Virus record (IMG/VR): IMGVR_UViG_3300021963_008171 | Span: 10,995-74,994 of that record | Direction: 5' to 3' (one strand) | Origin: a virus | Taxonomy: Duplodnaviria > Heunggongvirae > Uroviricota > Caudoviricetes | Length of the DNA: 64,000 bases | Part shown: piece by piece, positions 16,617 to 60,812 of the stretch | Numbering within the stretch: position 1 is the stretch's first letter | How the letters are laid out: every line of letters starts with the position of its first letter | Made by a program: the position numbers and the translations under genes | The notes under the pieces: generated by a model | Databases searched by the model: none | Told to the model about the DNA's origin: nothing | The model's input: only the letters and a program-made list of their open reading frames with translations

Positions 16617-16634
16617 TGTTTATCCCTATCCCAG

Positions 16635-32764: not shown

Positions 32765-33380
32765 CCTTTCTTTTATCCGAAATGATGTAATCGTAAATTA
32801 CATCATTTTCTATTTCTACTCCAATATATTCTAGCATCCTTGCAATTTCTGAAATGTTATGGCCGACAAAAAGATCTTCATAATAAAATATAGGCCACGA
32901 ATTTTGTTCTGCTATTGAGGTCATTTTATAGGAAAAATATTTGAAAGATTCGATTTCATTCTTTAGTCTTTCCCGATCTATTTTATTTACATCATATATC
33001 TTAGGAATATCCCACCCAATCTTAGAATCTAGATTTATTAAAAGACTTTCTGCCTGTAATCCTTTATCTCTTCTATCCAAAACTATAACCTTATCAAAGA
33101 ATTCTTTCATCCAATCAGTAAATCTTCTTTCATCGTTTCCTGTCGATTTTTTGGGATGCTGGCTACATCCAAAAAGGGTTTTAGTTAATACCTGATCGTA
33201 TTTAAAAAAAGGATCTATATAATCAAAATCAAAACCTTCTTTATAATATGTAACGTAATTTTTTGGATTATATGGTTCATAGAAACATTGAAATCCCTTT
33301 GGATGTAAATGCGATTCCAACATTCTATATAAGGAGGTTGAACCTGTTCTTGGCCTAGCTAATATTGCTATTTTACTCAT
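32745..33380 (-). CDS. Stf0-type sulfotransferase-like protein
   Basis: 5'-PSB-like loop ILARPRTGSTSL and 3'-PB-like VIVLDRRDKGLQAESLL. Paralogous to the two upstream genes. Confidence 0.7.
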   Translation of the reverse strand: MSKIAILARPRTGSTSLYRMLESHLHPKGFQCFYEPYNPKNYVTYYKEGFDFDYIDPFFKYDQVLTKTLFGCSQHPKKSTGNDERRFTDWMKEFFDKVIVLDRRDKGLQAESLLINLDSKIGWDIPKIYDVNKIDRERLKNEIESFKYFSYKMTSIAEQNSWPIFYYEDLFVGHNISEIARMLEYIGVEIENDVIYDYIISDKRKVRIDPD

Positions 33381-39417: not shown

Positions 39418-39874
39418 TTACCCATTTTTTTATTGATTCAATATCCTCATTGTGTTTAATTAGTTCTGGCTCTGTTTCTAGTATCCATAATTTATCCTTT
39501 AGAATAAATTCAGGCTTTAAAACCCTTATTGAGTAACCCCCGGATGATATCGTGTTAAAAATGTTTTCTACGTAATTAACAAACAAGTGAAATTCCCCGC
39601 ATTTGTTTTTATTAAATCCGGTGTATACCTCAAAATTAAATCCAAGATCCTGGTTGACTATTAAATCACCCCGATACAATCTAAATTTCCTTTGTAAAAT
39701 ATTTTCGTAAATGTCCCAATCTTTTTTTAAAATATTAAGATCTATATCAGAAATATCTCTACTTATTACCCCTTGTAGATTTAAGCTTAAAGATCCTCCG
39801 ACAATTATATTACCCTCTGTGATACTGTAAATTTCTTTGAATATCTCCTCGTAGGGTCCGTGTAGTTTAATCAT
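39407..39874 (-). CDS. minimal nucleotidyltransferase (pol-beta-type fold)
   Basis: IVGGSLSLNLQGVISRDISDIDLNI fits hG[GS]x9-13Dh[DE]h. Confidence 0.55.
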   Translation of the reverse strand: MIKLHGPYEEIFKEIYSITEGNIIVGGSLSLNLQGVISRDISDIDLNILKKDWDIYENILQRKFRLYRGDLIVNQDLGFNFEVYTGFNKNKCGEFHLFVNYVENIFNTISSGGYSIRVLKPEFILKDKLWILETEPELIKHNEDIESIKKWVNER

Positions 39875-40422
39875 ATTAATGTCTTTTTAAATCCACCAGA
39901 TCCTTTAAGAGAAACCCAATTGACCAAAGAATATCTGATCCCGCTAATAACAGGGGTTACCCTGTGTGGTGTGTCGGAATAAAAGATCAATAAGGTTCCT
40001 GTGTTAACATTTGGAGTTGTTAAATTACCATTATCGTCTTTGAATTGTAGATATCCCCCGTCATAATCATTATTGAGTACGATTACAACCGAACAATATC
40101 TTTCTCTGTAGACATCGTCTGAAGAATCTGTATGCCAATTATAATATTCATCGGGTTTGTATTCAGTAAATTGATATCTACCTAGATTTGTTAATTCGTG
40201 TCCCTTAACATTCATGGTTTTTCTTAGAATTTCCTTTAATCTATCATCTAAACCATCAATCTTATCTATAAATCCCACTGATGATTTTCTAGCGTTAGAA
40301 ATACCAGAATTTGCCACTTTTGCTGCGGTTAGATTCAATTCAGTTTTATACTTTATTATACATTCGAAACATTCATCCTCTGTTAAAAATCCACAAAAAA
40401 CTTGAACGTTCCTATTCATCAT
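39871..40422 (-). CDS. 2OG-Fe(II) oxygenase (P4H-like)
   Basis: HxD in NWHTDSSDD, the distal His in DTPHRVTPV, Arg in IRYSLVNWV, and VVIVLNNDYDGGYLQF. Confidence 0.75.
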   Translation of the reverse strand: MMNRNVQVFCGFLTEDECFECIIKYKTELNLTAAKVANSGISNARKSSVGFIDKIDGLDDRLKEILRKTMNVKGHELTNLGRYQFTEYKPDEYYNWHTDSSDDVYRERYCSVVIVLNNDYDGGYLQFKDDNGNLTTPNVNTGTLLIFYSDTPHRVTPVISGIRYSLVNWVSLKGSGGFKKTLI

Positions 40423-40653: not shown

Positions 40654-41031
40654 CTATCCTTTGCTTACGTCATATTTTATAGACCCATCAGCTGACATAT
40701 GACCAGTTCTTATAGCAGTACCGCTTATTGCTCCTACCTCTGCTGGCGGTTCATGGTAAATCACATCATATCCTACTCCCCTTCCATAATTAACACTTTC
40801 TATATCAGGTATAACGGAGATAAAAAGTCTCCCGGTTTGTAAATAATCGTTCAGTTCGATTTTTAATTCATCAAAAACTTGCAATGCAGATTTTGGATTG
40901 TTTTCGTCTTGCGGTACGTCTCTAATTGCGACCCAGACATTCTTCCCCTGACTAAATTGCTGATCTATTAACCACTGGTGTCCTTTGTGCCAGTTTTGCC
41001 ATCTTCCGATGTATAACGCGTATTTTTTCAT
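40654..41031 (-). CDS. minimal HxGH-type nucleotidyltransferase (cytidylyltransferase-like superfamily)
   Basis: YIGRWQNWHKGHQWLI carries the (H/T)xGH motif, and ISGTAIR matches the ISxTxxR motif. 125 aa. 4-nt overlap with the APS-kinase gene. Confidence 0.65.
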   Translation of the reverse strand: MKKYALYIGRWQNWHKGHQWLIDQQFSQGKNVWVAIRDVPQDENNPKSALQVFDELKIELNDYLQTGRLFISVIPDIESVNYGRGVGYDVIYHEPPAEVGAISGTAIRTGHMSADGSIKYDVSKG

Positions 41032-41465
41032 ATAGATTCTAGACCCAAAATACTGATAAGTTCCTCGAACGATTCATTCAGATCATCACCATTTACAAAT
41101 GCCTTATAATTATCAACGGGCAGCTCAAATGCTTGTACATGGAGTTTATCCTTTCCTGAGAAATGCGGCCTATTAAACAGTATCTCAGTGACCTCGTTAT
41201 TCGCTTTTAAATCCTCCCTAATTGCACGATAAGGACAAACCATACTTATCACTACATCATATCCTTTTTGGCTCATAAAACGAGCTATTGTAAAGGATCT
41301 TTCTATGTTTCTAATTCTCCCCGAATATGAATAATCAGTATTTGGAAATATCTCTCTTAAATCGTCGCCGTCTATCCAAATTGTTTTTTCGCCCAATCTT
41401 TCTACGAGCATACTAGACATTTGGGTTTTTCCTGTGCCAGGCTGCCCGATAAACAAATAAATCAT
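41028..41465 (-). CDS. cysC: adenylyl-sulfate (APS) kinase-like
   Basis: IYLFIGQPGTGKTQMSS...IWIDGDDLREIFPNTDYSYSGRIRNIERSFTIARFMSQKGYDVVISMVCPYRAIRE aligns with E. coli CysC LWFTGLSGSGKSTVAG...[53 protein letters not shown]. The lid region appears shortened. Confidence 0.7.
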   Translation of the reverse strand: MIYLFIGQPGTGKTQMSSMLVERLGEKTIWIDGDDLREIFPNTDYSYSGRIRNIERSFTIARFMSQKGYDVVISMVCPYRAIREDLKANNEVTEILFNRPHFSGKDKLHVQAFELPVDNYKAFVNGDDLNESFEELISILGLESI

Positions 41466-41694: not shown

Positions 41695-42918
41695 ATGGTT
41701 TGGAATTACCAAGATACAGTGCTAGTTCATGTGGAACTTTCCAATCTTTGCAATGCTGCTTGTCCCCTTTGCCCAAGATATGTAAACAATTCGTTAAGGG
41801 TCAATCCAGAATTGGACTTGGGCAGCGTTTCTTTTGAGGATTTTAAAAAATGGTTCCCTCTAGAATTTGTACAAAAAAGTAAAGGATGGATATTCTGCGG
41901 TACTAATGGCGACCCCATGATGGCTAGAGACGTGTATGAGATATTAGAATATGTTCTCAGAAATTCGACTGCTAAGGTCCAGGTCAACACTAACGGTTCC
42001 ATAAGAGACGGGGAATTTTGGGAAAAAATAGGATCTTTATTTGCCGAGCCCTGTGAAAATAGCAGATATGTTGTTTTCTCTGTTGATGGACTGGAGGACA
42101 CGAACCACATCTACAGAAGAAACGTGAAATGGGAGAGGGTGATGGAAAATATGAGAGCCTATGCAAAATCAGGATCTACTGGTATTTGGGACTTTCTAAT
42201 ATTCAAGCACAATGAGCATCAGCTAGAGGAGGCTGAGCTTCTCTGCAAAGAAATAGGTCTAGCATTTTCTCCAAAAAGACCCTTTGGGTTTGAAACGGGA
42301 AATCCTGATGAATACCAGGACTTAATGGTTTATGACATGGAAGGAAATTTTTTATACAAGATAGAGCCGGCCAGCGAGGAGTGGAGATTAAATAGATCCA
42401 TGAATAAATTTGAGAGAGGAGAGGAAAAAATATGGATTCCGGGAAAGGGGAAAAGAACAGATGATGAAATCAAAGAAAAGTGGAATGGACTGATCGAGAG
42501 GGATCTTCCTAAATATAAATTCCCGGAAAGATTCAAAGAAAAATCAGTTAGTTGCAAATCTTGCCATCCTATCGGGAAGGAAATTTATGTTGATTGTAAG
42601 GGAAATGTTATGCCTTGCTGCTTTGTTGGAACAATGTACAACAGTGACTTTCAACACCACGAGGCATTACAGATAAAAAAACATTTATGGGACTGGGGAT
42701 TGGATAAAATAAATCTGAATAATCATTCTCTCAAAGATATACTAGATAGCAAATATCTAGATGAGGTTTTTGCCAACCGCTGGGAAGGAGCTAAGGATGA
42801 GGATAAAATGGGATATTGCTTTAACACATGCTCGGTTGATCACATGAAAGATCTTTTTGTCAGAAAGGAAAATCTACCAATTTCTTCAGAAAAATCAGGC
42901 AAAAAAAGTCTTATCTAG
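41695..42918 (+). CDS. radical SAM enzyme with a Cys-rich (SPASM/twitch-like) C-terminal region
   Basis: CxxxCxxC in LSNLCNAACPLCPRY. The C-terminal region has CKSCHP...CKGNVMPCCF...CFNTC. Confidence 0.75.
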   Translation: MVWNYQDTVLVHVELSNLCNAACPLCPRYVNNSLRVNPELDLGSVSFEDFKKWFPLEFVQKSKGWIFCGTNGDPMMARDVYEILEYVLRNSTAKVQVNTNGSIRDGEFWEKIGSLFAEPCENSRYVVFSVDGLEDTNHIYRRNVKWERVMENMRAYAKSGSTGIWDFLIFKHNEHQLEEAELLCKEIGLAFSPKRPFGFETGNPDEYQDLMVYDMEGNFLYKIEPASEEWRLNRSMNKFERGEEKIWIPGKGKRTDDEIKEKWNGLIERDLPKYKFPERFKEKSVSCKSCHPIGKEIYVDCKGNVMPCCFVGTMYNSDFQHHEALQIKKHLWDWGLDKINLNNHSLKDILDSKYLDEVFANRWEGAKDEDKMGYCFNTCSVDHMKDLFVRKENLPISSEKSGKKSLI

Positions 42919-42945: not shown

Positions 42946-45441
42946 ATGAACGATAAGATAAATTTAGTCTATGACGATTGGCCTCTTGATCAGGAAAGGC
43001 CGAATCCCAATGGAGATAAATATTTTCCAGAAGCAAATGCCTGGATGACTGGTGATGGTCCGATGGAGACTCTTCGATACTGCAATTACGTCAACCGAAG
43101 AATGGAAGATGTCGACAAGTACCAGGAGGAAAATTTCTTTTATGTTGTTTGGCATCGACATTCTCTCTATGACAGATTTTTGTATTTTGACAGACTTCCA
43201 ATAGGTGATGATATGATAGGGGCTTTCCAAAGAAAGCCAAATCTTTATCTTCTTTTAATAAACGATCAAGAGATAGAGCCTATAGAAACTATAAGCAAAC
43301 TTGATCTCGCTCTAGAAAGAAATAATATAGATCCAAGAAAGGTTTTTGTAGTTAACAACAATTCTAGAAATTGGGAATATAAAAAAGAATTGGGGAGTAA
43401 TATTAATGTTCATAGTACGAGGGCAATGCCTCTAGCATTGGCTAAAATTCCCAGAAGTAATTTCGTAGAGAATAAAGAAGGGCATTTTTTCATGTCACAC
43501 AACCATTCTTTAAGAGAAAGCAGATCCGCGTTTGTGTGTCTCTTAAAAAAATATGGACTGATCGATGATTTTGATTGGTCTTATTTGAAGCTCTGGAGAC
43601 TACCTGGTGAGGATTGGATAACTATCTATAGAAGAATATTCAACGATTCCGATATGGAATTCATGATGCCAGAAATAGAATATTTTAATTCTTATGGTAT
43701 TAAGAAAAGCAATTACGAGTCACATTTTCCGTGGCTTGATGAAATGACAACTAATAGTCCTTCTTGGTGGGAAACATTTAATTCACAGCAGTACGAGAAT
43801 ACCTATTTTAATGTAACTGTGGAAACACAATATTTTGGAAGGGACCTTCACATAACAGAAAAGTCATTTAAACCCTTTATCCATCTGCAGTTTCCTATGA
43901 TTCTTGCCTCCAGACATCATATAAAACATATGCGGGAGTATTACGGGTATGATTTTTTCGATGATGTGATTAACCACGATTATGATAACGTCGTAAGTGA
44001 TAGAGATAGAATCTTTAGGTTCATAGAAGAACTAAAAAGAATTCAGGAGAATAAAGAATTCTTTATCGATTTTTATAAAAATAACAAGGAAAGATTTCGG
44101 AGGAATCAAGAAATGGTTTATCAATTCACCAATGAATATGATGCTAGCTATTTCAGGGCATTGACAAAATTTGATCACCCAAAGAAAACCCTTAATCTTG
44201 TTTATGATAATTGGGATACCCAAACTAATCGCCCATTAAGAGGCAATTCTGAAGATCTTTACCTAAGTACATTCCACATGAATGTTGACAGTGTAGTTGG
44301 ATCCTTACAATTTGATAGAAGATTAATCAGAAGATATAGATTGGAAGATGTTCCTAAGATAAAAAATGAGACATTCTTTTATTTTGTCACCTTAATTCCT
44401 GGCATCCTAGCGGAGAATTTAAGATCTGGAAAACTACCAATAAATAGAGATGCTATCAACATGCTCAAGAATTATTCAAACTTTAATGTGATAATAATGA
44501 ATGAGCAGGAAGCAGAAAGAAAAGAAACACTGGTTCTTCTTGATAAATGGTCCAAAGAATCCGGCTTAAATCAGCAACAAATTTGGTTTTCTAATAACAA
44601 CCCAAGACTACAAGAATTCAAAGAGGAAATAGGAACTGATATAAATGTTCATTCGACAGTTAGACTTGCTAATTTCACAGCAAATTCTGTTATACATTCA
44701 GTGGGAAGGGTGGAGTTCAAGTCTGAGAAAGACGGGGAATTTTTCATGTGTCACAATAGAAGGCCAAGACCGCATAGATATGGTTTACTATGCTTGCTTA
44801 AAAAGAGCGGGGTTTTAGATGATGTTGATTGGTCTTTAGTTCAAGGGTTTCAGTTCAAGGGAAATAAGCACCCTGAATCCTTCTTTAGAACAATATTTAA
44901 CGATGAAGATATAGAAAACATGAGAGAAGAAATTGAGTACTTCTCTAACATAGAACAAAAGAAAAGTAGATACGAGGAAGAAAGAACATGGTTCGATGAT
45001 AGGGAAAATGAAAATAATGTTCCTTGGAATGAAACCTATGATAAAAATCAGTTGGAAAATTCATATTTCAATATCACAACAGAAACTGAATTTTCATCAG
45101 ATCTGACACACATATCAGAAAAATCTTTCAAAGCTTTCTGTGCAATGCAGTTTCCCATGATTCTTGCATCTGCTCACCACATCAGAGAAATTAAAAAGAA
45201 ATATGATTTTGATTTTTTTGATGATGTGATCAATCACGATTATGACGACGAAGAGAATCACAGAGACAGACTTTTTAAATTTGTAAAAGAGATAAAAAGA
45301 ATAAACGACAACAAGGAGTTCTTCATAGAATTTTATAAGAACAACAAATTTAGATTCGAGGAAAATCTTAGAAAAATAGAGGAGAAAGTAAAGGATCAAT
45401 CAGATTCTGACTTTTTAAAAAGAATATCTGGTATAATATGA
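42946..45441 (+). CDS. tandem-duplicated two-module enzyme, fucosyltransferase (GT10/GT11)-like C-terminal motif in each half
   Basis: The halves (aa 1-~411 and ~412-831) are colinear. Shared blocks: INLVYDDW/LNLVYDNW, NVHST, FFMSHN/FFMCHN, LCLLKK.G..DD.DWS, and HITEKSFKPFIHLQFPMILASRHH/HISEKSFKAFCAMQFPMILASAHH followed by FFDDVINHDYD. Confidence 0.45.
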   Translation: MNDKINLVYDDWPLDQERPNPNGDKYFPEANAWMTGDGPMETLRYCNYVNRRMEDVDKYQEENFFYVVWHRHSLYDRFLYFDRLPIGDDMIGAFQRKPNLYLLLINDQEIEPIETISKLDLALERNNIDPRKVFVVNNNSRNWEYKKELGSNINVHSTRAMPLALAKIPRSNFVENKEGHFFMSHNHSLRESRSAFVCLLKKYGLIDDFDWSYLKLWRLPGEDWITIYRRIFNDSDMEFMMPEIEYFNSYGIKKSNYESHFPWLDEMTTNSPSWWETFNSQQYENTYFNVTVETQYFGRDLHITEKSFKPFIHLQFPMILASRHHIKHMREYYGYDFFDDVINHDYDNVVSDRDRIFRFIEELKRIQENKEFFIDFYKNNKERFRRNQEMVYQFTNEYDASYFRALTKFDHPKKTLNLVYDNWDTQTNRPLRGNSEDLYLSTFHMNVDSVVGSLQFDRRLIRRYRLEDVPKIKNETFFYFVTLIPGILAENLRSGKLPINRDAINMLKNYSNFNVIIMNEQEAERKETLVLLDKWSKESGLNQQQIWFSNNNPRLQEFKEEIGTDINVHSTVRLANFTANSVIHSVGRVEFKSEKDGEFFMCHNRRPRPHRYGLLCLLKKSGVLDDVDWSLVQGFQFKGNKHPESFFRTIFNDEDIENMREEIEYFSNIEQKKSRYEEERTWFDDRENENNVPWNETYDKNQLENSYFNITTETEFSSDLTHISEKSFKAFCAMQFPMILASAHHIREIKKKYDFDFFDDVINHDYDDEENHRDRLFKFVKEIKRINDNKEFFIEFYKNNKFRFEENLRKIEEKVKDQSDSDFLKRISGII

Positions 45442-47105
45442 AAAAGGTACTAATTACAGGATGCAATGGTTTAGTTGGAAGCTATCTAAGAGATCTTTGT
45501 TTAGATAATGGATGGAAAGTTACTGGTGTAGATAGAAACGCAACAAAGAGAATTACCAGAGATTTTAATTACAAATTTAAAAAACTAGACTTATTAATAG
45601 AACAAAATATAATAGATCTTTTTAAAGATGAAAAATATGATGTAGTATTTAATTGTTTTGGAATTAAAGGATCTCCAGTAAGGGCAAAAAATAATCCTGT
45701 TGATTTTCTGTACCCGTCTTTTAAAATAAACACTGAGATAATAAATCAATGTTATTTAAACGACACGTGGTTGGTTTTTGTTAGCTCTGTTGGTGTTTAT
45801 AGCCCAGCAGAAAAATTCTCAGAAGATGATGTTTGGAAAACACTACCATCAGAATCCGATTGGTTTCCGTCTTGGTCTAAAAGAATGGGAGAATTGCTAT
45901 TGGAATCATATCGGGTTCAATATGGATACAACAAATGGACGATAGTAAGACCAGCAAATATATTTGGTGAATACGACGACTTTAGTGGTAGTGGAACATT
46001 GATATCAACCATGGTAAAAAAGGTCTACGAATCTTCTGGAGAGATTGAAGCATGGGGAGACGGCACACCTATCAGGGATTTTGTTTACGGAAAAGACGTT
46101 GCTTTGTCTTTAATAAAACTTTATGAAGAAGAAATAAACGATATAGTTAATTGCGGGTCAGGAATAGAGGTATCAATAAAAGATGTTGTTGAAGAAATTA
46201 TAAAAGCAAGCGGGAAGGAAATCTCAGTAAAATGGGATTCTTCTAAACCTAATGGAGATCTTAGAAGACTAATGGATACCACAAGACAGGAAATTCACGG
46301 GATAATGCCAAAAACCAATTTTTCCGATGCTATACTTAATGTTTATAAATATTACTCAGGTCTTTTCGAAGAGGAGTTACCAGTAATATCTAAAGACGAT
46401 TTGCTCGTCGAAGGTGCATATGTTGGAAAAATATCTGATTTCCTAGAGGAGGATGAATTAGAGCTTTTCAAAGAAATGATAGAGGATGTTAAAGAGTACT
46501 CCTCCGAAGATATTGAAAATAGACTTTCGTGCAAATATAATTATGACGATATAGTAAATGAATATGACCATAATATTCCACCCAGTAAAGTTGCGGAGAG
46601 AGATGCATTTATTCGAAAGAATAAATATCACGTTTGGCAAAAATGGTGGGATTTTAGGTATCCTAAAGAGTCATATTTCAGCGAGATAGCCACAAAAATA
46701 TTAAAGGATCTTTACCCACAGGCTGCCGCTGCTTTGAATGAGGCTAAGATATCAGGATCTATGGCACTTTTTGAAGATGGACATTTCATAGACATTCACA
46801 ACGATGGAGCTAATGTAGGAAGACTTTGTGTAATTATATTCTATCTCTCCGACCCTTCTGCTCATAATAACGGGGGAGGGGAATTAAGAATAATTACCAG
46901 CACAGGAAAAGAATTTATAATAGATCCAGTTTTTGATAATTTCTGCGTGATGGATTTTGCAAAGAATAACATAAAACATGAAGTAAAGATGGTTAATAAC
47001 GGATTTAAAAGATATACCTATATAAATTTTATATCACTCAAAGATGGGATTTTAGAATCAATTTTCCCGAACGAAATAAAAATAGAAAAGAAAAAAATAA
47101 TATGA
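45438..47105 (+). CDS. fusion protein: NAD(P)-dependent epimerase/reductase (extended SDR) plus C-terminal 2OG-Fe(II) oxygenase-like domain
   Basis: N-terminus VLITGCNGLVGSYL, RPANIFG and WGDGTPIRDFVY. C-terminus IDIHNDGANVGRLCVIIFYLSD...GGGELRI...IKHEV...RYTYINF, giving HxD, a distal His and an Arg. Confidence 0.65.
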   Translation: MKKVLITGCNGLVGSYLRDLCLDNGWKVTGVDRNATKRITRDFNYKFKKLDLLIEQNIIDLFKDEKYDVVFNCFGIKGSPVRAKNNPVDFLYPSFKINTEIINQCYLNDTWLVFVSSVGVYSPAEKFSEDDVWKTLPSESDWFPSWSKRMGELLLESYRVQYGYNKWTIVRPANIFGEYDDFSGSGTLISTMVKKVYESSGEIEAWGDGTPIRDFVYGKDVALSLIKLYEEEINDIVNCGSGIEVSIKDVVEEIIKASGKEISVKWDSSKPNGDLRRLMDTTRQEIHGIMPKTNFSDAILNVYKYYSGLFEEELPVISKDDLLVEGAYVGKISDFLEEDELELFKEMIEDVKEYSSEDIENRLSCKYNYDDIVNEYDHNIPPSKVAERDAFIRKNKYHVWQKWWDFRYPKESYFSEIATKILKDLYPQAAAALNEAKISGSMALFEDGHFIDIHNDGANVGRLCVIIFYLSDPSAHNNGGGELRIITSTGKEFIIDPVFDNFCVMDFAKNNIKHEVKMVNNGFKRYTYINFISLKDGILESIFPNEIKIEKKKII

Positions 47106-48076
47106 TAAACAAGAATTCAAGAATTTTAATTACCGGTGGATCTGGATTGGTTGGACAAAATTTAACTGAAAGACTAGTCAGAGAGGGATATACAGATTTA
47201 AGAGTAAATCTTCATAGAAGAGGAGTTAGAAAGGTTCATGACGGTGTTAATTACACATATCATGATCTACAAACATACGAAGGGTGTAAAATCGCAACAG
47301 TGGACGTTGATGTTGTTTTTCATGCCGCTGCTTCAACCTCAAATGCAGTTGATACTGTAGTAGATCCTTTAGCACACGTTACACCAAATGTTGCTATGAA
47401 TAATTTTCTTATAGATGCAGCTTGGAGGAATAATGTACAGCACTATATTTTCATTTCTTCCAATACCGTTTATCCACCAAAGGGTGATGAGCCTGTGGTA
47501 GAAACAGATTTTCTATTTGATGAACCTTATCCAGTATATTTTCCAGTTGGCTGGATGAAAAGATACGCAGAGGTTCAGTGCGAACTTTACGGAAAATATC
47601 TCCCAAGAAAGATGAAATCAACTGTGATAAGACCAGCCAATTTGTTTGGTCCTCATGATAAGTACGATTTCAATAAATGTCACGTTACCCCAGCAACAAT
47701 AAGAAAGGTAGCAGACAAAATGAACCCGATTCCTGTTTGGGGTGACGGATCGGAATTAAGGGATCTCCTTTTCGTAGAAGATTTTGTAGAAGCTCTACAG
47801 ACGGTAATGGAAAAAGAAACTGAAATGTTCGAGGTGTATAATGTTGGATCTAATAAAGTATATTCAGTTCTTGATGTTCTTGAGAAGATGAAAAAGATTG
47901 CAGACTATGATGCACCGACAGAGTTCATTAGTGGAAAGCCTTCTATGATACCAACTAGAAAAATAGATTCTAATAAAATCAAAGAAAAATTAGGATGGGA
48001 GGCAAAAACCCCCCTAGAAGATGGATTGGCTATAGCTTATAATTGGTATCTTGAGAATAATAAAGAATTCAAATAA
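47102..48076 (+). CDS. GDP-L-fucose synthase (Fcl/GMER)-like NAD(P)-dependent epimerase/reductase
   Basis: [14 protein letters not shown]. By-eye matches to E. coli Fcl: [26 protein letters not shown] vs [64 protein letters not shown] vs GWYHEISLEAGLASTYQWFLEN. Confidence 0.75.
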   Translation: [324 protein letters not shown]

Positions 48077-48077
48077 T

Positions 48078-48983
48078 ATGAAGGGATTGATTTTTGCTGG
48101 TTGTTCTTTTACCTGGGGTCAGGGATTATATTACTATTCGGGATTGAATACTTTAGTCGAGCCTGAACCAGATTGTTATGATGCTAGTCTTATCACAGAT
48201 GCCCATAAAAGATATATGGAAACACTGAGATATCCCAGGATAGTTGCAAATCATTTCAACACGTTTGAGTTGGTGTCTAAGCAAAATGGAGGATCTGAAG
48301 AAAGTTCGATTGATTTTATTAATTCAGCATTTGGAATTGGGGAAAAATTTGGATTTTTAACAGATCAGGAATTTTCTTTTAGCGAAATAGAATATGTTAT
48401 AATACAAACATCCCAACCGAATAGAAATGGATTTTACTTCCAATACGAGGGAGAGGAACATAAATTCTTGATTCACGAAAAATCATCAAAAGGTAAATTT
48501 TACGAATGGCTTATAGAAGAAAGAAAATTAACTATCGATGAGTGGTTTGAAGAGCACAAGGAAACATACATTGAGAAAATAAAAAGATTGATGAAGTTCC
48601 TTGAATCCAATGGAATTAAAACGAAAATACTCTGCTGGGAGAACGATTATTTAAATCTAATCAGATCTGATATTTTTATGTACAACAGATTTATCCCGTT
48701 GGAATACAGAGGGGATCAATTTTCGTCCATAAGAGATTTAATGTCCAAACACTCGCATCTTACCATAAATTCAGATTATGATAACTTTCAGGATCCTCCG
48801 AAGGATCACCATCCATCTAAAGAATGTCACCAGGTTCTAGCAGAATCTGTTATAAAATCTATAGAAAGTGATCTGAAGAATTTAAGCGAAACCCATATTT
48901 TTGATGATCACAGGGAGTTTATGAAAACTCTTCCTTGTCCAGCAAAAGAGCCAATTATAAAAAAGGCTAAAACCCTTATATAG
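48078..48983 (+). CDS. divergent SGNH-like hydrolase
   Basis: ATG 48078 is in frame with track ORF 48051. The N-terminus LIFAGCSFTWGQG has GCS in place of GDS. The C-terminus is PKDHHPSKECHQVLAESV. Confidence 0.45.
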   Translation: MKGLIFAGCSFTWGQGLYYYSGLNTLVEPEPDCYDASLITDAHKRYMETLRYPRIVANHFNTFELVSKQNGGSEESSIDFINSAFGIGEKFGFLTDQEFSFSEIEYVIIQTSQPNRNGFYFQYEGEEHKFLIHEKSSKGKFYEWLIEERKLTIDEWFEEHKETYIEKIKRLMKFLESNGIKTKILCWENDYLNLIRSDIFMYNRFIPLEYRGDQFSSIRDLMSKHSHLTINSDYDNFQDPPKDHHPSKECHQVLAESVIKSIESDLKNLSETHIFDDHREFMKTLPCPAKEPIIKKAKTLI

Positions 48984-50421
48984 GTTTTTCTGGTGGATAT
49001 GGATAAGTACCTGTTTCGAAGTGCGTTATTCTTCCATCGTTAAGATTAACTACTGGAATGGATTGATCAACTTTTATAGCCCCATACCATTCAGCTAATT
49101 CTGGAAAAGTCTCTTTGAAGTTCTTACCCCTTCTACTATCATATTGTACATAGAAGCTTTTGAAATCATGGTGTAGTATCGATTTATCGTCTTCTGTTGT
49201 ATTGTGCCCTTTCTCTACAACCTGTATGTAATCCAATAATCTTTGAACCTGAGCAAATTCTCCAACACTGAATAAATTGGGTGTCATTTTTTCGTTGAAC
49301 CATTTACTCAATTTTGCATGAAGCTCAGCTTTGATTTCATCAGGAAGAACTAATGGTGACATAAATGCCGGCCATCTTAGAATATTAAGATCAACGTTTG
49401 GTTTATTTGCACCATATTTCTTTTTTAGTTCTATCATATCATCCAAGAAATCAGTGATGCTAAATAGACATAAACTGTTGATTGTCATCATTATGGTTAA
49501 AGATCTTAATTTAGCTCTTTCGATTAAGCTAACAAGATTGCTTCTCCATGTTTCGTAAACTAATCCGTCTCTAATATATTCTGCATGTCTTCCATAGGAT
49601 TCGTTGCTAGTATAGATGTCCATTTCTTTAATGTCCATCGTGTGTGACATTGCTATCATCTTCTCTAATGTTTGTTCTGTCATTCCGAGATTTGAATTAA
49701 CAGCAAGTCTTAGATTAGGAGAAGGGTTGGATTTTAATATGTCTATGAAATCCCAAAAATTGTGGCTCAAAGAAGGCTCTCCCCCTGTAATTCTGATCTC
49801 CTCTAATGTTTGAGATAACTCTGGCCACCATTCGAAAAAAGCCTGTACGAATGGATTCCTTTCGTTATACTTTCCAAATATTTCTGACCAAGAACCGTCA
49901 CTTCGGTATGCACCCGCTGAATCTGTTCTCATCTTTTGATATGGACCAAATTGCTGAATTTCCTTTCCCCACGTGGTACTGTATCCTGCATTACAATAGC
50001 TACACGCAAAATTACAAGTTCTATCAAAGCTTATTTCTAATGTCTTTAAAAGAATATCATCTCTGTAATCGGTCTCTTCTATTTTAGCTATGTCTTCCTC
50101 GTTATAGATGATGCTTTTGTAAACCCTGTCAGATACATTGTTTCTCCCTATGTCCTCTATTTTCCAGCAATAAGAGCATTCTGCAGGTCTAATGCCACTA
50201 AGCATCATTTTTCGCATTTGCTTTTTATGCCTTGTGTTGTGAATTGCAGAAGGATTTGTTTTTATTTCTTCCAAGTCTATAGGATGCGGAAGGGGTAAAT
50301 GGCAGGATCCGGTGTATCCATGTCCAAGATGTATACTTGCATTGTACCATTTCGCTGCACAAAAGCTTTTGCTTATCTTATTAAGGTTTTTTTCTCTCCA
50401 GTCTATCAGTTCTTTTGACAT
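48976..50421 (-). CDS. radical SAM enzyme (paralog of 50989..52383)
   Basis: CxxxCxxC in DRTCNFACSYCNAGYS. The N-terminal Cys/His cluster is CAAKWYNASIHLGHGYTGSCHLPLPH...ECSYCWKIED. Confidence 0.75.
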   Translation of the reverse strand: MSKELIDWREKNLNKISKSFCAAKWYNASIHLGHGYTGSCHLPLPHPIDLEEIKTNPSAIHNTRHKKQMRKMMLSGIRPAECSYCWKIEDIGRNNVSDRVYKSIIYNEEDIAKIEETDYRDDILLKTLEISFDRTCNFACSYCNAGYSTTWGKEIQQFGPYQKMRTDSAGAYRSDGSWSEIFGKYNERNPFVQAFFEWWPELSQTLEEIRITGGEPSLSHNFWDFIDILKSNPSPNLRLAVNSNLGMTEQTLEKMIAMSHTMDIKEMDIYTSNESYGRHAEYIRDGLVYETWRSNLVSLIERAKLRSLTIMMTINSLCLFSITDFLDDMIELKKKYGANKPNVDLNILRWPAFMSPLVLPDEIKAELHAKLSKWFNEKMTPNLFSVGEFAQVQRLLDYIQVVEKGHNTTEDDKSILHHDFKSFYVQYDSRRGKNFKETFPELAEWYGAIKVDQSIPVVNLNDGRITHFETGTYPYPPEKPI

Positions 50422-50429
50422 AGTCTAAA

Positions 50430-51011
50430 TTATATTTGGTGTAGAAAATTGCAGTTATCTGTTAGATCGTAGCTTTTTCCGTGGATGAATTCTTCGAATA
50501 CATGCTTACTTATAGTTTCTTCGTCTCTTATTATTTCCAGTTCATGAAGAATTACCTCAAGATAATTGAGATTAAATTCATTTTTCGGGAAATTCCCAGC
50601 TCCAAATATTATATGTGAATTTGTGTCTGCTGCTAATTTGTCGTTTATAAAATAAAGGGTTAATGCATTTCCGTCTATATAAACAGTTATTACACCATTT
50701 CCTTTTGTTACCAACAATTCATATTTTCTGTTTGGCTCCCATTCAAAGTTACAAGAAAGATATTCAGTTTTTCCTTTACCGTCAGTAACAATTAATAGCA
50801 TGCCATATTCCTCCAGATCTATTCCAAGGTAGCTGGGAAGTTTAGCAAATAGAGTTGATTTTCTAGTTATTTCTTTCTCTAGTTCAAAGACTAGCTTAAA
50901 ACTAAAATCCCCTTCATAATCAAATATGTGATTTGCTGGATCTTTTATGAATTTTTGTCCTAATATATTAGGCCACATTATCCAGGGTTCACCCTCTTTT
51001 ATTTTTAACAT
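50430..51011 (-). CDS. LamG/concanavalin-like jelly-roll protein
   Basis: FSFKLVF...RKYELLVTKGNGVITVYIDGNAL...NSHIIFGAGNF...LEVILHELEII fits the Laminin_G_3 pattern. Confidence 0.5.
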   Translation of the reverse strand: MLKIKEGEPWIMWPNILGQKFIKDPANHIFDYEGDFSFKLVFELEKEITRKSTLFAKLPSYLGIDLEEYGMLLIVTDGKGKTEYLSCNFEWEPNRKYELLVTKGNGVITVYIDGNALTLYFINDKLAADTNSHIIFGAGNFPKNEFNLNYLEVILHELEIIRDEETISKHVFEEFIHGKSYDLTDNCNFLHQI

Positions 51012-52383
51012 CTTCGTAGAATTTTTTTAGTTCAGGAAAGGTTTTTATAAAATCTGTACCTCTTCTTTTATCGTGTTCATCAACAAACAATACAAAATCT
51101 TTTCTATTTTTTTCAACGTCGAATCCATCCTCTGATATAGCATAGTCATAGATTCTTTTTATCTTTTGAATCTCAACATCGGAAAATCCATAATTATCGT
51201 GTGTGAATTCAGGTGTTGCGTAATAGAATGCTTTTTGAGCAGCTTTGAATATGAGCTCTTTGTGTTCGTCGTTAAGTATTTTAACCGACTGATGCTCTGG
51301 CCATCTTAGATAGGATGTATCTAGCTGTATGGCAGATATCCAATACCTTTCTTTGTTTTGGTATTTCTTTTTTAGCTGGAATATCTTTTCTATTAACTTA
51401 GAATACCCAAACACCGACATTGCGTTAAACGTTGCCATAACGTTCACTGTGACCTTCGGAAGTTCGGTTAGGATAGTTTCTACATTTTCGAAGAAGTGGT
51501 CAAAATTGAGCCCGAAACGGATGTATTCGGCTTGTTCTTTCCATGCTTCACACGAGGTAAATACTATTAGCTCGTTTACCCTGTTTTCCTCAATTATTTT
51601 TTTACACAATTTCACAAATTTTTCTACCAGATTTTTAGGAACACCAAGATTGGTATTGATTGAAAGATTTAATTTTCTATTAGGTTCCTCGGTTTCTGCT
51701 ATGAATTCTAATAACTTCCACGTGTCTTTTGAAAGAAGTGGTTCACCACCAGTTATTCTAAATGTGTGTAAGTCGTTGTAAAGATCTGGCCACCATTCCC
51801 AAAATGCTTCAACGTATGGATTTTCTTCTGAATGCTTGTATGGTATTTGTCCGGTTTCCCTGGGCCATTTAAGATCATTAAAATTTGTTGATGTTGGATA
51901 TCCCCCATGATTTTCTATTTCTTCCATCCATTTGGAAGAAAACATAGGGCTACAATAGGAGCATTTGAAATTACACGTGTTTGAAAAATTAACCTCAACA
52001 TATTTTGGATTGTAATCTGAGCTCCATCTTAGATTTTTAATTTCGTCCATGTGTGGAAATGACCATGGCTCTGAGCTTTTGAAAACCCTATCAGAAAAAG
52101 ATTCTGAACTATCTTCCACCTTCCAACAATAATTACATTCCTCGGGTCTTTGCCCATTTAACATTTCCCTTCTCACCTTCTTTTTGTGCTTGGTGTTGTG
52201 AAGAGCCGATGGATTATTTTCCAGTTCGCTCAAAGGAATTTTATGTGGAATCGGGTGATGACATGAATGCGTCATTCCATTATGAAGATGCATAGTAACT
52301 TGTGTCCACTTAGCGAGACACATCCCACATCCAGTTGAATTTAATTCTTTTCTTGTTTCCTCAAAAATTCTTTGATCGCTCAT
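50989..52383 (-). CDS. radical SAM enzyme (paralog of 48976..50421)
   Basis: SNTCNFKCSYCSPMFS. The N-terminal cluster is CGMCLAKWTQVTMHLHNGMTHSCHHPIPH...ECNYCWKVED. Confidence 0.75.
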   Translation of the reverse strand: MSDQRIFEETRKELNSTGCGMCLAKWTQVTMHLHNGMTHSCHHPIPHKIPLSELENNPSALHNTKHKKKVRREMLNGQRPEECNYCWKVEDSSESFSDRVFKSSEPWSFPHMDEIKNLRWSSDYNPKYVEVNFSNTCNFKCSYCSPMFSSKWMEEIENHGGYPTSTNFNDLKWPRETGQIPYKHSEENPYVEAFWEWWPDLYNDLHTFRITGGEPLLSKDTWKLLEFIAETEEPNRKLNLSINTNLGVPKNLVEKFVKLCKKIIEENRVNELIVFTSCEAWKEQAEYIRFGLNFDHFFENVETILTELPKVTVNVMATFNAMSVFGYSKLIEKIFQLKKKYQNKERYWISAIQLDTSYLRWPEHQSVKILNDEHKELIFKAAQKAFYYATPEFTHDNYGFSDVEIQKIKRIYDYAISEDGFDVEKNRKDFVLFVDEHDKRRGTDFIKTFPELKKFYEDVKNKRG

Positions 52384-53825
52384 TATGCTTTACAATTTAT
52401 TAAAAGTACGTTATTGCCAAGATCCTTCGCCGTGATTAATTCATATTGCATATTATTAATCCCGTCGCTCTTGTAATCTATGGATCTTCTTTGCATTTCT
52501 GTAACAAATCTTCTTTCGTTTCTGGCTGTTGTTTCTCCCTTAGCCCATTTATTGTTTACTAATCCTTCGTCAACATGTGGCATGCATTCAAAATCTCCTT
52601 CTCTTCTAAATGGTATTGGCATATCAGTAACCGAAAAATCCTTCTTCTCAAATTCCACATTTTTATGATCTGCTCTTACTCCTTTTATTAAATCTGGTAT
52701 TTTTTCTGCTGATATATTTTCAAAATCATAATGCAAGACAGGATCTATTTTCTTTGAATGAAAATCCGATATTTGACTAGCATTATCTACGAATTTATCA
52801 AATATAAGTAATTCTGCTATCTCTCCCCTGAAATTTATAGGATTTCCTTTATCTGCATTGGTTCCTAAATACATCGGACTTTTATCTTCGTAATTGAACA
52901 TACCTCCAAATATGTAAGTGGATTTTTCCTCCTTGATGCCCTTTTCGTTAGATTTTCCAAGCTCGTCATTAAGAAAAAAGTTAAATCTGGACTCAGATTC
53001 TTTATACGAAGTTGTCACCCATGTCCATTCTTCGTCACTTCTTTTGAGCCAATTGTAAAACATAGTTTTGTCCTGGTTGTAAACCATGCTTGTTACTGCT
53101 CTTGAATTATTGAAAGAGATTGAATATGGACAATAGCTTTGCTTTCTAAAAACTGGAAATTCTATAAATTGTTTATCTTCCTCCCCTATTAACCATTCGT
53201 TATACTTTTCATTCTGTTGCTGAGCCCGGAATAAAACCGCTATGGTGTGATCTTTGGTTAACAGGTGATTCATTTCTTTTTTGTGAGGAATCTTTATCCA
53301 TGAATCCTCCCCATTAAAAATTGCAACATTCTTCTGATCGTACTTTTTATACACCCTGCAGTTAGAGTATCCCTCGAAATGAGCACGGAAAAAAAGATCA
53401 TCGTCTTCCATTCCCCAATCCCAATAGTTATTAGAATATCCATTTGTTCTCTCCACCTGCTCCTTGGTAAAAAGAACCACCCCGCCAAAGTATTGTTCGT
53501 AATTTAATTTGTAATCATACTTTGATAGTTTGGTTGCTATATGAACAGGATTTTCTCCTGGGTAGGAATAATCACAGTCTTCTGACACTGGTATCATATC
53601 AATATCGTGCCATGCTATGTAATCACATCCGTCATCAAAAGCAAACTTGGCTGCAATGTTCTTCATTAAACCCCGGTTAAAGAGTTTATCGTCCATTTGA
53701 TTTGCAACATAGAATTTATGTTCTATTCCTCTCTTGTTCAGAAATTCTGTCAAGTGCGGAACTAGTTTTTGTAAATGTTCGTATCTATTTCTGTATGGGA
53801 TACAGATTCCAAGTTTATGTTTCAT
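52383..53825 (-). CDS. GT7 (beta-1,4-galactosyltransferase-like) glycosyltransferase with an inserted LamG-like domain
   Basis: Start ATG 53825, forming an ATGA overlap. IPYRNRYEHL..., FNRGLMKN, HDIDMIPV and YFGGVVLFTKEQVERTNGYSNNYWDWGMEDDDLFFR compare with mammalian B4GalT1 [36 protein letters not shown]. The C-terminal tail SDGINNMQYELI... resumes the GT7 fold after a ~230-aa insert. Confidence 0.8.
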   Translation of the reverse strand: MKHKLGICIPYRNRYEHLQKLVPHLTEFLNKRGIEHKFYVANQMDDKLFNRGLMKNIAAKFAFDDGCDYIAWHDIDMIPVSEDCDYSYPGENPVHIATKLSKYDYKLNYEQYFGGVVLFTKEQVERTNGYSNNYWDWGMEDDDLFFRAHFEGYSNCRVYKKYDQKNVAIFNGEDSWIKIPHKKEMNHLLTKDHTIAVLFRAQQQNEKYNEWLIGEEDKQFIEFPVFRKQSYCPYSISFNNSRAVTSMVYNQDKTMFYNWLKRSDEEWTWVTTSYKESESRFNFFLNDELGKSNEKGIKEEKSTYIFGGMFNYEDKSPMYLGTNADKGNPINFRGEIAELLIFDKFVDNASQISDFHSKKIDPVLHYDFENISAEKIPDLIKGVRADHKNVEFEKKDFSVTDMPIPFRREGDFECMPHVDEGLVNNKWAKGETTARNERRFVTEMQRRSIDYKSDGINNMQYELITAKDLGNNVLLINCKA

Positions 53826-55234
53826 ATGCCTACGTCTACCCAAGTTATATTCTTGTCTTTTTTTATTCCGTGTTCTGTGAATTTGATTCTGAATACACCA
53901 TCATCTTCATCTGATGATGACATACTATAATTTTTAGAAACCTCGTTGATGAACCTCAATTGATTCCATCTAGTTGCCTGATCCTTCCATTTATTTTCAA
54001 AGAATCCATTCTCACTGTGACCAAGTGCTTTGAATAATCCCTTCCTCCTTCTGGGAATTTCTAATTTTTTGTGTGATGGAATTTCCATTTCCCTGATATC
54101 ACAATTGAATATTCTAGCATGATTCCTATTTCCGGATTGATCTACCAATCGATAATTTCTGATACTTTTTGCATTGTAAAGAAGATGTAGCTCGTTAGAA
54201 ATTTTATATTTTCTAAATTTTTGATTTTTAGTTAATTCCTCTACCTCTTCTTTGGATAAACATTTCTTGACAACTGCAAATGAGTCTATCAGTCCTTTAA
54301 ACATATTAGGATCTCCTATTCTGTGTGGATTTCCTGCTCCTAGATAAAACAAATCAACATCATCATATGACCTTAAAGATTCGAATCCCTCAGATTCTCC
54401 TATTAATTCACCATCCTGATAGAATTTGATTTTCTTTTCTCCTAATGATATTGTCACACAAACTGTAGTTTGATAGTTTGTTTTAATATCGGAATTCACG
54501 TAAAAAGCTTTTTCTTCCTTATCGAATGTTACAAAATTGTATCTCTGAAAAGAATTATAAGAAACTGCAGTGTCATATCCAGGTAAGCTAAATGCTGTAA
54601 AAACGTCCGAATCCTTTGTGTGATCACACTCGATATCTTCTGGATAAAAAGAAACAAAAAATGTTAGATCCGTATCAAGATCAAAATTGTTTTTAATCTC
54701 GACGTAAGAATTAATTCCATTAAAATATAATGCTGTGAATTTCTTTTTTGAATTCTTAACAAATCCAAAATCAGTCTCACATCCGTTTCTAACGCATCTT
54801 AATAATAGATCATCGTCTTCGAATCCCCATCCCCAATATCTGTTTGAGTAACCATTTATTCTTCTAAATTCATCTGCTGGAAAAATAGTAACACCACCAA
54901 AATATTGATCGAAAGTCTTTTTTGTATTTCCAGATTCTACCTCCACTATATTTTTAGCCAAGTGAACTGGGAATGGTGAATAACTATAATCAACATCAAC
55001 AGGAAGAAGATCTATGTCATGAAATACCACATAATTACATCCAAGTCTTTTTGCGTATTTGAATCCAATATTTAAGAGCATCCCACGGTTAAATTGCTTA
55101 GCATCATCTTGGTTGATAATGATAAGCTCGAATGAGATCCTTTTCTCGTCAAGATAATTTATTAGATGTCTCTTGAATGCTAGAAGATGCTCCCATCTGT
55201 GCCGATGAGGTACTATTACTCCTAGTTTATTCAT
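53822..55234 (-). CDS. GT7 (beta-1,4-galactosyltransferase-like) glycosyltransferase with an inserted LamG-like domain (paralog)
   Basis: VPHRHRWEHL, FNRGMLLN, HDIDLLPV and YFGGVTIFPADEFRRINGYSNRYWGWGFEDDDLLLR. The insert contains FKGLIDSFAVVKKCLSKEEVEEL. The tail ...NITWVDVGI compares with B4GalT1 ...TQITVDIG. Confidence 0.8.
   Translation of the reverse strand: MNKLGVIVPHRHRWEHLLAFKRHLINYLDEKRISFELIIINQDDAKQFNRGMLLNIGFKYAKRLGCNYVVFHDIDLLPVDVDYSYSPFPVHLAKNIVEVESGNTKKTFDQYFGGVTIFPADEFRRINGYSNRYWGWGFEDDDLLLRCVRNGCETDFGFVKNSKKKFTALYFNGINSYVEIKNNFDLDTDLTFFVSFYPEDIECDHTKDSDVFTAFSLPGYDTAVSYNSFQRYNFVTFDKEEKAFYVNSDIKTNYQTTVCVTISLGEKKIKFYQDGELIGESEGFESLRSYDDVDLFYLGAGNPHRIGDPNMFKGLIDSFAVVKKCLSKEEVEELTKNQKFRKYKISNELHLLYNAKSIRNYRLVDQSGNRNHARIFNCDIREMEIPSHKKLEIPRRRKGLFKALGHSENGFFENKWKDQATRWNQLRFINEVSKNYSMSSSDEDDGVFRIKFTEHGIKKDKNITWVDVGI

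Positions 55235-60737: not shown

Positions 60738-60812
<75 letters not shown>

Follow-up and report, generated by a model that had tools for sequence, protein, structure and literature searches.

The window analyzed here is a 64,000-nucleotide (nt) stretch of DNA from a virus of the Caudoviricetes (IMG/VR record IMGVR_UViG_3300021963_008171, positions 10,995 to 74,994). It encodes a protein of 555 amino acids (aa) in which an extended short-chain dehydrogenase/reductase (SDR) domain, termed SDR1, is fused to a 2-oxoglutarate (2OG)/Fe(II) oxygenase domain, termed OXY, and, directly downstream, a second extended SDR, termed SDR2. Both SDRs resemble GMER (GDP-L-fucose synthase, a 3,5-epimerase/4-reductase), the enzyme that converts GDP-4-keto-6-deoxymannose to GDP-L-fucose, normally with GDP-mannose 4,6-dehydratase (GMD) as its partner. 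Nucleotide-sugar SDRs are regarded as being defined, in their catalysis, by a Ser-Tyr-Lys triad, and both viral proteins are without its tyrosine. The open reading frames (ORFs), domains, and residues concerned are as follows.

45438–47105, plus strand: SDR1-OXY fusion ORF, 555 aa, with PF01370 and PF13640 and an AlphaFold2 (AF2) model of pLDDT 84
45438–46367, plus strand: SDR1 domain, aa 1–310, a GMER/Fcl-like extended SDR by its best PDB match (1bws), Foldseek, and NF047922
45459–45488, plus strand: GxxGxxG dinucleotide-binding motif, G8/G11/G14, invariant in 29 homologues
45531–45533, plus strand: Asp32 at the end of strand beta2, invariant in 29 homologues
45783–45794, plus strand: S116-S117-V118-G119, invariant; by alignment Ser117 corresponds to GMER Ser107 and Gly119 replaces the epimerase Cys109
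45861–45881, plus strand: W142-F143-P144-S145-W146-S147-K148 at the expected YxxxK; by alignment Lys148 corresponds to GMER Lys140
46371–47102, plus strand: OXY domain, aa 312–555, a 2OG/Fe(II) oxygenase like prolyl hydroxylase domain (PHD) and prolyl 4-hydroxylase (P4H) enzymes, by AF2, Foldseek, and a TaPHD profile
46794–46805, plus strand: I453-H454-N455-D456, HxD iron ligands; H454 and D456 invariant and aligned to the HxD of TaPHD
46974–47030, plus strand: distal His514 (KHEV) and Arg525 (RYTYINF), both invariant; His514 aligns to the distal His of TaPHD
47102–48076, plus strand: SDR2, 324 aa, the second GMER-like SDR, with S120-V149-K153 instead of S-Y-K
47537–47560, plus strand: Y146-F-P-V149-G-W-M-K153 of SDR2; by alignment Val149 stands at the catalytic Tyr position, and Tyr146 is invariant
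47675–47686, plus strand: K192-C193-H194-V195 of SDR2; by alignment His194 corresponds to GMER His179, and Cys193 is invariant

An earlier note on this DNA had placed an SDR–oxygenase fusion at 45438–47105 and an Fcl-like SDR at 47102–48076; both ORFs are found there, and the fusion was confirmed by Pfam and by the family alignment. The 555-aa ORF overlaps each of its neighbors by 4 nt (ATGA, at 45438–45441 and 47102–47105). PF01370 (Epimerase) covers aa 4–240 of the protein (E = 2.4e-38, 132 bits against a cutoff of 20.9) and PF13640 (2OG-FeII_Oxy_3) covers aa 444–532 (30.0 bits against a cutoff of 27), and SDR2 matches PF01370 with E = 4.5e-41 and 141 bits against the same cutoff of 20.9. 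By Pfam score, GxxGxxG motif, and Rossmann fold, SDR1 and SDR2 both belong to the extended SDRs. All motifs quoted in the note are present, namely GCNGLVGSYL (aa 8–17), WFPSWSK (aa 142–148), IHND (aa 453–456), KHEV (aa 513–516), and RYTYINF (aa 525–531) of the fusion protein and YFPVGWMK (aa 146–153) of SDR2. The 2-kb G+C profile is flat across the module (~0.30–0.38) and thus gives no sign of a local assembly artefact, and a frameshift artefact is ruled out by the many independent homologues. The database search for the same fusion that had been proposed recovered it from over 100 protein clusters of metagenomic origin; among the 120 best clusters, PF01370 and PF13640 occur together in about 112, at 45–99% identity and 520–590 aa in length. 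For the gene neighborhood, the ORFs of 83 related loci were called and then assigned to classes by means of probes taken from the window.

The best PDB match of SDR1 is E. coli GMER (1bws, E = 8.5e-27), and the best PDB folds for the whole protein are likewise E. coli GMER (target-normalized template-modeling (TM) score 0.84–0.85), followed by other nucleotide-sugar SDRs in Foldseek. Ser117 and Lys148 of SDR1 align unambiguously to GMER, and the register opposite GMER Tyr136 is ambiguous by one residue. While phmmer, a profile hmmsearch, and hhalign against GMER set Tyr136 opposite Phe143 with a 1-aa insertion, MAFFT sets it opposite Pro144 without a gap, and a family-to-family hhalign comparison of SDR1 with SDR2, which pairs the FP dipeptides of both, leaves it at a deleted position. 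Whichever register is used, SDR1 is without a conserved Tyr. Of the 120 cluster representatives, 86 have Phe and 34 have Tyr at position 143, with at least seven switches on a neighbor-joining tree, and a hydroxyl that comes and goes in this way cannot be a catalytic acid. Around this position, the motif DW[FY]P[SA]WSK recurs in 83 of 83 loci and 120 of 120 clusters, with Asp141, Trp142, Pro144, Trp146, Ser147, and Lys148 invariant. In GMER, Cys109 and His179 (E. coli numbering) form the acid/base pair of epimerization, and both are gone from SDR1, where Cys109 is replaced by the invariant Gly119 and His179 falls in a gap.

SDR2 matches E. coli GMER with E = 1e-33 and is aligned without gaps in the catalytic region by phmmer, MAFFT, and hhalign. 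The GMER residues Ser107, Cys109, Tyr136, Lys140, and His179 are paired with Ser120, Thr122, Val149, Lys153, and His194 of SDR2, respectively. Ser120, Val149, Lys153, His194, Tyr146, and Cys193 are invariant in 62 distinct SDR2 sequences of 45–98% identity, as are the GxxGxxG glycines, and 79 residues in all are invariant among sequences down to 45% identity. Both SDRs therefore keep the Ser and Lys of the triad and are without its Tyr. The earlier note had been unable to place a canonical YxxxK by eye; with phmmer, hmmsearch, MAFFT, and hhalign, its absence proves real in both proteins and not an alignment slip. Nor is either SDR a 4,6-dehydratase of the GMD/RmlB type, SDR1 reading SSVG and SDR2 SSNT, with no acidic residue and no Tyr. 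The note's label of a reductase/epimerase is too specific, since SDR1 is without both epimerase residues and SDR2 keeps only the His. The two SDRs, which the note calls paralogs, are neither close paralogs nor recent duplicates: E. coli GMER scores 125 and 140 bits against the two SDRs, whereas SDR1 and SDR2 score 103 bits against each other. As each SDR is closer to GMER than to the other and both are conserved, the loss of the Tyr is an old, fixed, and selected state in both.

These data bear on the simplest alternative, that SDR1 and SDR2 are ordinary GDP-L-fucose synthases with a displaced Tyr (Phe/Tyr143 in SDR1, Tyr146 in SDR2), which we regard as highly improbable. GMER is the best match for both proteins, HMMER and hhalign set Phe/Tyr143 opposite Tyr136, the JGI family name is 'GDP-L-fucose synthase', and the best NCBIfam model for SDR1-OXY and SDR2 is the GDP-L-fucose synthase model NF047922. 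However, on this model SDR1-OXY scores 124.1 bits and SDR2 147.2 bits, far under the equivalog cutoff of 500. Position 143 is Phe in 72% of clusters, Cys109 has become Gly in SDR1 and Thr in SDR2, and SDR1 is missing His179. Moreover, as the earlier note had observed, the window is without a GMD: hmmsearch with SDR profiles against all six-frame segments matched only SDR1-OXY and SDR2, leaving no third SDR in the window. Two such synthases next to each other would also be of little benefit to a single virus. The database label 'GDP-L-fucose synthase' is almost certainly wrong for these proteins.

The two families are constrained to different degrees. SDR2 is the slowest-evolving gene of the module, with a median identity to the window protein of 81%, compared with 61% for SDR1-OXY, 44% for U310, and 29% for U415 (the last two being further genes of the module, described below). 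In more than 120 clusters SDR2 is 82–93% identical to the window protein, even where the fusion protein of the same contig is less than 50% identical. The genes that neighbor these homologues (P0144–P0263) have diverged to 30–60%, and SDR2 also has an invariant Cys193-His194 pair. On sequence evidence, then, both SDRs are under selection and not decaying.

It is nevertheless conceivable that one or both SDRs are not redox enzymes and instead bind a nucleotide sugar or a dinucleotide, so as to hand substrate to OXY or U415 or to keep a complex together. The general-acid Tyr is lost in both, SDR1 is also without both epimerase residues, its catalytic loop is modeled at low confidence, and it behaves as a hub that is found fused to U415, OXY, or SDR2. 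SDRs dimerize via the helix that normally bears YxxxK. However, both families retain Ser, Lys, and GxxGxxG without exception, and the surroundings of the missing Tyr (DW.P.WSK in SDR1, Y..VG.MKRY in SDR2) are invariant as well, unlike a relaxed pseudo-active site; SDR2, moreover, evolves more slowly than all other module genes. Reductases of SDR fold that use Lys and no Tyr are also known in the PCBER/IFR group: in PCBER/IFR/NmrA-like atypical SDRs and in the PRISE/VEP1 progesterone 5-beta-reductases, Lys acts alone or Tyr and Lys lie elsewhere, although these are other subfamilies and none acts on nucleotide sugars. We consider a non-redox role unlikely overall. A pseudoenzyme or scaffold function is possible, and likelier for SDR1 than for SDR2. 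The earlier note had offered a non-catalytic binding role beside a changed mechanism; for SDR2, the most conserved gene of the module, such a role is unlikely.

The oxygenase domain, by comparison of its sequence with known families, looks catalytically complete, because the HxD, the distal His, and the Arg are invariant. Modeled alone by AF2, OXY has a pLDDT of 89, a pTM of 0.87, and a confident double-stranded beta-helix (DSBH), with the beta-sandwich at aa 437–533. Its top Foldseek matches are Pseudomonas PPHD (4j25/4iw3), DdPhyA (6t8m), and human PHD2, with probability 1.0, TM scores of 0.5–0.56, and 15–18% identity. When the OXY family profile was compared with solved structures, one match fell below E = 0.01, the Trichoplax HIF prolyl hydroxylase TaPHD (6ey1, E = 0.0014), and this alignment pairs H454-x-D456 and His514 with the iron ligands of TaPHD. 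H454, D456, H514, R525, and Y469 are invariant (29 and 16 homologues). Arg525 presumably binds the C5 carboxylate of 2OG, a role that we take from knowledge of PHD and P4H enzymes, and a Tyr in the 'YL' strand of OXY appears to correspond to the 2OG-binding Tyr of PHD2. By Pfam score, DSBH fold, HxD...H triad, and basic residue, OXY belongs to the 2OG-Fe(II) oxygenases; the triad residues and the Arg that the earlier note had picked out are intact and invariant by sequence, just as the alignments reveal no normal YxxxK upstream. Use of 2OG by the SDR itself, in the manner of Cj1427, was set aside, the 2OG site here lying in a separate DSBH domain.

OXY forms a small family: a profile search of 1.84 billion representatives (clusters at 50% identity) gave only 328 relatives at E ≤ 1e-3, mostly stand-alone proteins of ~210–260 aa. 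Stand-alone copies occur, for example, in an OXY-OXY-SDR2-SDR3 arrangement (locus L084; SDR3 denotes a further SDR, one that has the canonical motif Y-G-Q-T-K), and a more distant relative adjoins a peptide deformylase on a 1.8-kb contig without an SDR. Within single homologues of the fusion, the SDR1 part is 59–61% identical and the OXY part 31–41%.

In the window, the module comprises U415x2, SDR1-OXY, SDR2, and U310, in this order and with start/stop overlaps. The two flanking genes are as follows.

42946–45441, plus strand: U415x2, 831 aa, tandem repeats of ~415 aa that are 41% identical; present in 77 of 83 loci and overlapping SDR1-OXY by 4 nt
48078–48983, plus strand: U310, a conserved protein with N-terminal GCSFTWGQG, directly downstream of SDR2; present in 48 of 83 loci

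Across the 83 loci the order U415, SDR1, OXY, SDR2, U310 is kept, and SDR1 occurs in 83, SDR2 in 81, U415 in 77, U310 in 48, and OXY in 37. The recurrent larger order is SDR3, an RmlC-like gene, an E1-alpha-like gene, U415, SDR1 (with or without OXY), SDR2, U310, and an E1-beta-like gene. OXY is fused to SDR1 in 18 ORFs (17 of SDR1-OXY and one of SDR1-OXY-SDR2) and stands alone in 35 ORFs, which include tandem paralogues; free-standing or fused, it adjoins SDR1 or SDR2 in the loci examined. The 555-aa protein is thus a natural fusion of enzymes that are adjacent but separate in many related viruses. Other combinations include U415-SDR1 (loci L020, L021, and L045), U415-SDR1-OXY (P0087, 969 aa), SDR1-OXY-SDR2 (L063, 870 aa), SDR1-SDR2 (634 aa), and U310-U415.

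The canonical SDR, the RmlC-like gene, and the E1 alpha-like (210 aa) and beta-like (181 aa) genes flank SDR1 and SDR2 in 63–76 of the 83 loci (for example, L002 at 6610–8757 and 13476–14024). The RmlC-like gene scores 108 bits on TIGR01221, under its cutoff, and the E1-like genes are a truncated pair resembling pyruvate-dehydrogenase E1 alpha and beta, which hints at thiamine-dependent sugar chemistry such as the addition of a two-carbon branch. By tblastn and hmmsearch, the window is without SDR3 and without the RmlC-like, E1-alpha-like, and E1-beta-like genes. It represents a reduced clade with only U415x2, SDR1-OXY, SDR2, and U310. All complete loci of this reduced type carry OXY, which is not independent evidence, since they form one clade.

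U415 has a conserved motif, 'TET...HITEKSFKPF', with invariant Glu and Lys, and may be a new glycosyltransferase family. The same 'HITEKSFKPF' had suggested a GT10-like fucosyltransferase, and this is a lead only, as 22 members gave no Pfam match at E ≤ 1 and no PDB match at E ≤ 10. For U310, an SGNH hydrolase was considered from GCSFTWGQG and dropped, with no Pfam or NCBIfam match. In 40 loci, a family of ~1000-aa proteins termed big6 (for example, L073 at 14835–17864) lies near the module; by eye, one such protein has FHKGH (like an HxGH nucleotidyltransferase) near its N-terminus, followed by stretches that look like an acetyltransferase, an HD phosphohydrolase, and a ligase.

The main rival to a role in sugar metabolism, which we judge fairly unlikely, is that OXY hydroxylates Pro, Lys, or another residue in proteins. 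Acceptor hydroxyls would thereby arise on a virion or fibre protein such as the collagen-like one, the neighboring glycosyltransferases would glycosylate them with a sugar made by SDR1 and SDR2, and the fusion would link acceptor preparation to donor synthesis. The best folds for OXY are all prolyl hydroxylases (PPHD with EF-Tu (4iw3), PhyA 6t8m, and PHD2), its sole sequence-level PDB match is a HIF prolyl hydroxylase, and the same window holds a collagen-like protein from ~62.84 kb as well as two glycosyltransferase family 7 (GT7) genes and a second, stand-alone PF13640 oxygenase nearby. Mimivirus L230, in which hydroxylase and glycosylation activities are coupled in a virus, offers a viral precedent (PMC9614988). 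However, the similarity to PHDs is limited to TM scores of 0.5–0.56 at 15–18% identity, and in the loci examined OXY adjoins and fuses to the SDRs on either side and not to a glycosyltransferase. G-X-Y repeats within ~8 kb of SDR1 occur in none of 85 other loci, and the more typical P4H-like gene at 39871–40422 could serve the collagen-like protein.

We tentatively prefer, at somewhat less than an even chance, a reading in which the module would remodel a host-derived nucleotide-activated hexose. Remodeling of this kind is suggested because OXY lies strictly between or beside the SDR genes, is fused on both sides, and is optional and paralogous, and because relatives have sugar-pathway neighbors (the RmlC-like gene, the canonical SDR, and the E1-like pair). 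SDR1 would probably bind NAD, as the invariant Asp32 that closes beta2 suggests, and would bind, and perhaps oxidize or reduce, the sugar nucleotide. Where present, OXY would oxidize or hydroxylate the sugar in an optional step. SDR2, probably of NADP type because basic and not acidic residues follow beta2, would perform a conserved hydride-transfer step, and the product would be transferred or decorated by U310 and by U415, which is possibly a glycosyltransferase. Hydride transfer without the Tyr might proceed via the Ser/Lys pair and a relocated acid. Seven residues before the Lys, SDR1 has Asp141 (in the gapless register) and SDR2 has Tyr146; both are candidates for this acid, because they are invariant and because positions i and i+7 share a helix face. 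Taken together, the module looks like an undescribed virus-only route to an unusual sugar.

Several points weigh against the remodeling of a nucleotide hexose, and so against the hydroxylated deoxyhexose nucleotide that the earlier note had suggested as product. OXY is absent from 46 of the 83 loci and is therefore not integral to the role of SDR1 and SDR2. Neighbors with start/stop overlaps readily become fused, and such fusions are proof of co-expression only. The closest relatives of OXY by structure act as hydroxylases on proteins, not on sugars. In the full-length AF2 model of SDR1-OXY (mean pLDDT 84, pTM 0.55), the substrate/catalytic loop at aa 118–150 and the linker at aa 312–315 are modeled with low confidence (linker pLDDT < 50); with this pTM and linker, no fixed interface between SDR1 and OXY is predicted, and the proposal of an acid seven residues before the Lys depends, for SDR1, on the low-confidence loop. 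The assignment of NAD or NADP follows a rule of thumb, and in SDR2 the basic residues that come after beta2 are not strictly conserved. In addition, the window is without a 4,6-dehydratase or a nucleotidyltransferase for sugar activation.

A bolder proposal, which strikes us as distinctly unlikely, is that SDR1 and SDR2 form a virus-specific class of nucleotide-sugar SDRs without the Ser-Tyr-Lys mechanism, in which the acid would have shifted by one helical turn to Asp141 or Tyr146 and hydride would be redirected to a different carbon. In reduced clusters like that of the window, which have neither a dehydratase nor a canonical SDR, OXY would supply the keto or hydroxy intermediate by C–H oxidation of a nucleotide sugar. 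If true, the reduced clusters would possess a 2OG-oxygenase entry into deoxy- or keto-sugar biosynthesis, for which we found no described precedent.

Each component of the window proteins has relatives among known systems. With GMER (E. coli WcaG/Fcl, 1bws; human GFUS), the two SDRs share the extended-SDR fold, GxxGxxG, and the equivalents of Ser107 and Lys140, and SDR2 also keeps the equivalent of His179. However, they are 27–28% identical to GMER, are without Tyr136 and a partner GMD, and were found only in viral contigs, and the Asp at the end of beta2 in SDR1 suggests NAD rather than NADP. OXY shares with PHD-type prolyl 4-hydroxylases the DSBH, HxD...H, distal Arg, PF13640, and top fold matches, whereas its sequence match is marginal (E = 0.0014) and it is fused to or encoded beside nucleotide-sugar SDRs. 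Plant RHM and Mimivirus R141 with L780 (UGER; PMC9614988 for L780) similarly place two SDR domains in tandem on one nucleotide sugar, a layout mimicked by the 634-aa SDR1-SDR2 fusions. Their domains both have the canonical Tyr, and the first is a 4,6-dehydratase with an acid/base pair, whereas the window SDRs have neither. Mimivirus L230 and animal PLOD/LH3, which carry a glycosyltransferase and a lysyl hydroxylase in one chain, resemble SDR1-OXY in that a viral 2OG oxygenase is fused to a glycosylation-pathway enzyme, with a collagen-like protein in the same genome. Here, however, the partner is an SDR and not a glycosyltransferase, and OXY is PHD-like and not LH-like.

The best viral fold match (BFVD model) is A0A5B8IHX4, a 616-aa 'GDP-mannose 4,6 dehydratase' of Mimiviridae sp. 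ChoanoV1. The alignment spans both domains over 609 columns with E = 4.4e-27, compared with 5e-19 for SDR-only matches; the two proteins are 17% identical and differ in domain orientation (rmsd 21 Å). The predicted model suggests an analogous SDR and DSBH architecture in A0A5B8IHX4, and because of this match the architecture may not be unique to the module. A non-exhaustive literature search returned nothing specific on an SDR–2OG oxygenase fusion, on 2OG oxygenases acting on GDP-sugars, or on Tyr-less extended SDRs. Both superfamilies are known, and automated pipelines already tag both domains; what was not found described is the combination of strongly conserved Fcl-like SDRs that are without the Tyr, and in SDR1 also without the epimerase pair, with a recurrent fusion to a PHD-like oxygenase.

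The importance of these proteins lies in two SDR families that, in hundreds of viral contigs, are without the Tyr and yet strongly selected in the rest of their sequence, SDR2 keeping more than 80% identity among viruses in which the other genes of the module have diverged to 30–50%. If the SDRs are active, they would represent a different way of performing SDR chemistry or a new reaction, and would imply that abundant uncultured viruses display a novel sugar on their surface. With the recurrent fusion would come either a rare example of a 2OG oxygenase that takes a nucleotide sugar as substrate or a new connection, in viruses, of protein hydroxylation with glycosylation.

Here, the module was found only in viral and metagenomic contigs. 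Metagenome contigs bearing the fusion reach 267 kb, and 183 IMG/VR relatives were found on contigs of up to 335 kb. In 185,579 bacterial and archaeal species (one genome each), scans with six peptides from the window protein and with the motifs DW[FY]PSWSK and FG[IV]KGSPx[RK]A gave no relative, these being pattern scans that divergent relatives may escape. By tblastn, GenBank phage records contain no match to SDR1-OXY or SDR2 above 30% identity, and a tblastn search of phages with SDR1-OXY, SDR2, and a 767-aa ORF gave only matches below 33% identity. Comparison of the region and of 56–64 kb with 50,697 phage records by megablast and blastn yielded nothing beyond a tRNA. This is a tRNA-Met (CAT) at 60738–60812 (plus strand), the only part of 56–64 kb with DNA similarity to known phages. 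The genes lie in long co-directional blocks with pervasive start-stop overlaps of 1, 4, or 8 nt, and a mimivirus-type early promoter, AAAATTGA, was not enriched (8 found against 16 expected); the organization therefore looks phage-like rather than like that of a giant virus.

The module lies inside a viral glycan-synthesis island, of which two further gene pairs follow directly.

48976–52383, minus strand: two twitch-domain radical SAM genes, 48976–50421 and 50989–52383; the first scores 308 bits on NF033640 (cutoff 170)
52383–55234, minus strand: two GT7 beta-1,4-galactosyltransferase-like genes, 52383–53843 and 53822–55234, by PF13733 and PF02709

A LamG-like ORF of 193 aa stands between the twitch radical SAM genes, and the twitch pair recurs in 62–64 of the 83 loci. 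A third radical SAM gene, of SPASM type, is found at 41695–42918 (plus strand). GT7 is a mainly eukaryotic family; the two genes of the window have relatives in 21–26 loci and long C-terminal extensions, the second with a LamG domain.

The collagen-like protein extends from 62839 to 64000 (plus strand) and past the window end, with runs of 8–19 G-X-Y triplets from 62932. Its triplets include G-x-P, G-P-x, and G-x-K, and its G+C content is ~0.46, compared with ~0.35 elsewhere. It is possible that it is a substrate of the P4H-like oxygenases of the window. The second, stand-alone PF13640 oxygenase, at 39871–40422 (minus strand), has 183 aa, scores 57 bits, and is unrelated to OXY by BLAST. On the same strand lie an APS-kinase-like gene (41028–41465), a small HxGH nucleotidyltransferase-like gene (40654–41031), and a weak sulfotransferase match (32745–33380), which together suggest a possible viral pathway for glycan sulfation. 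Farther upstream, at 26845–28470 (plus strand), the window encodes a TROVE/Ro60-like RNA-binding protein (phrog_850, E = 5e-42).

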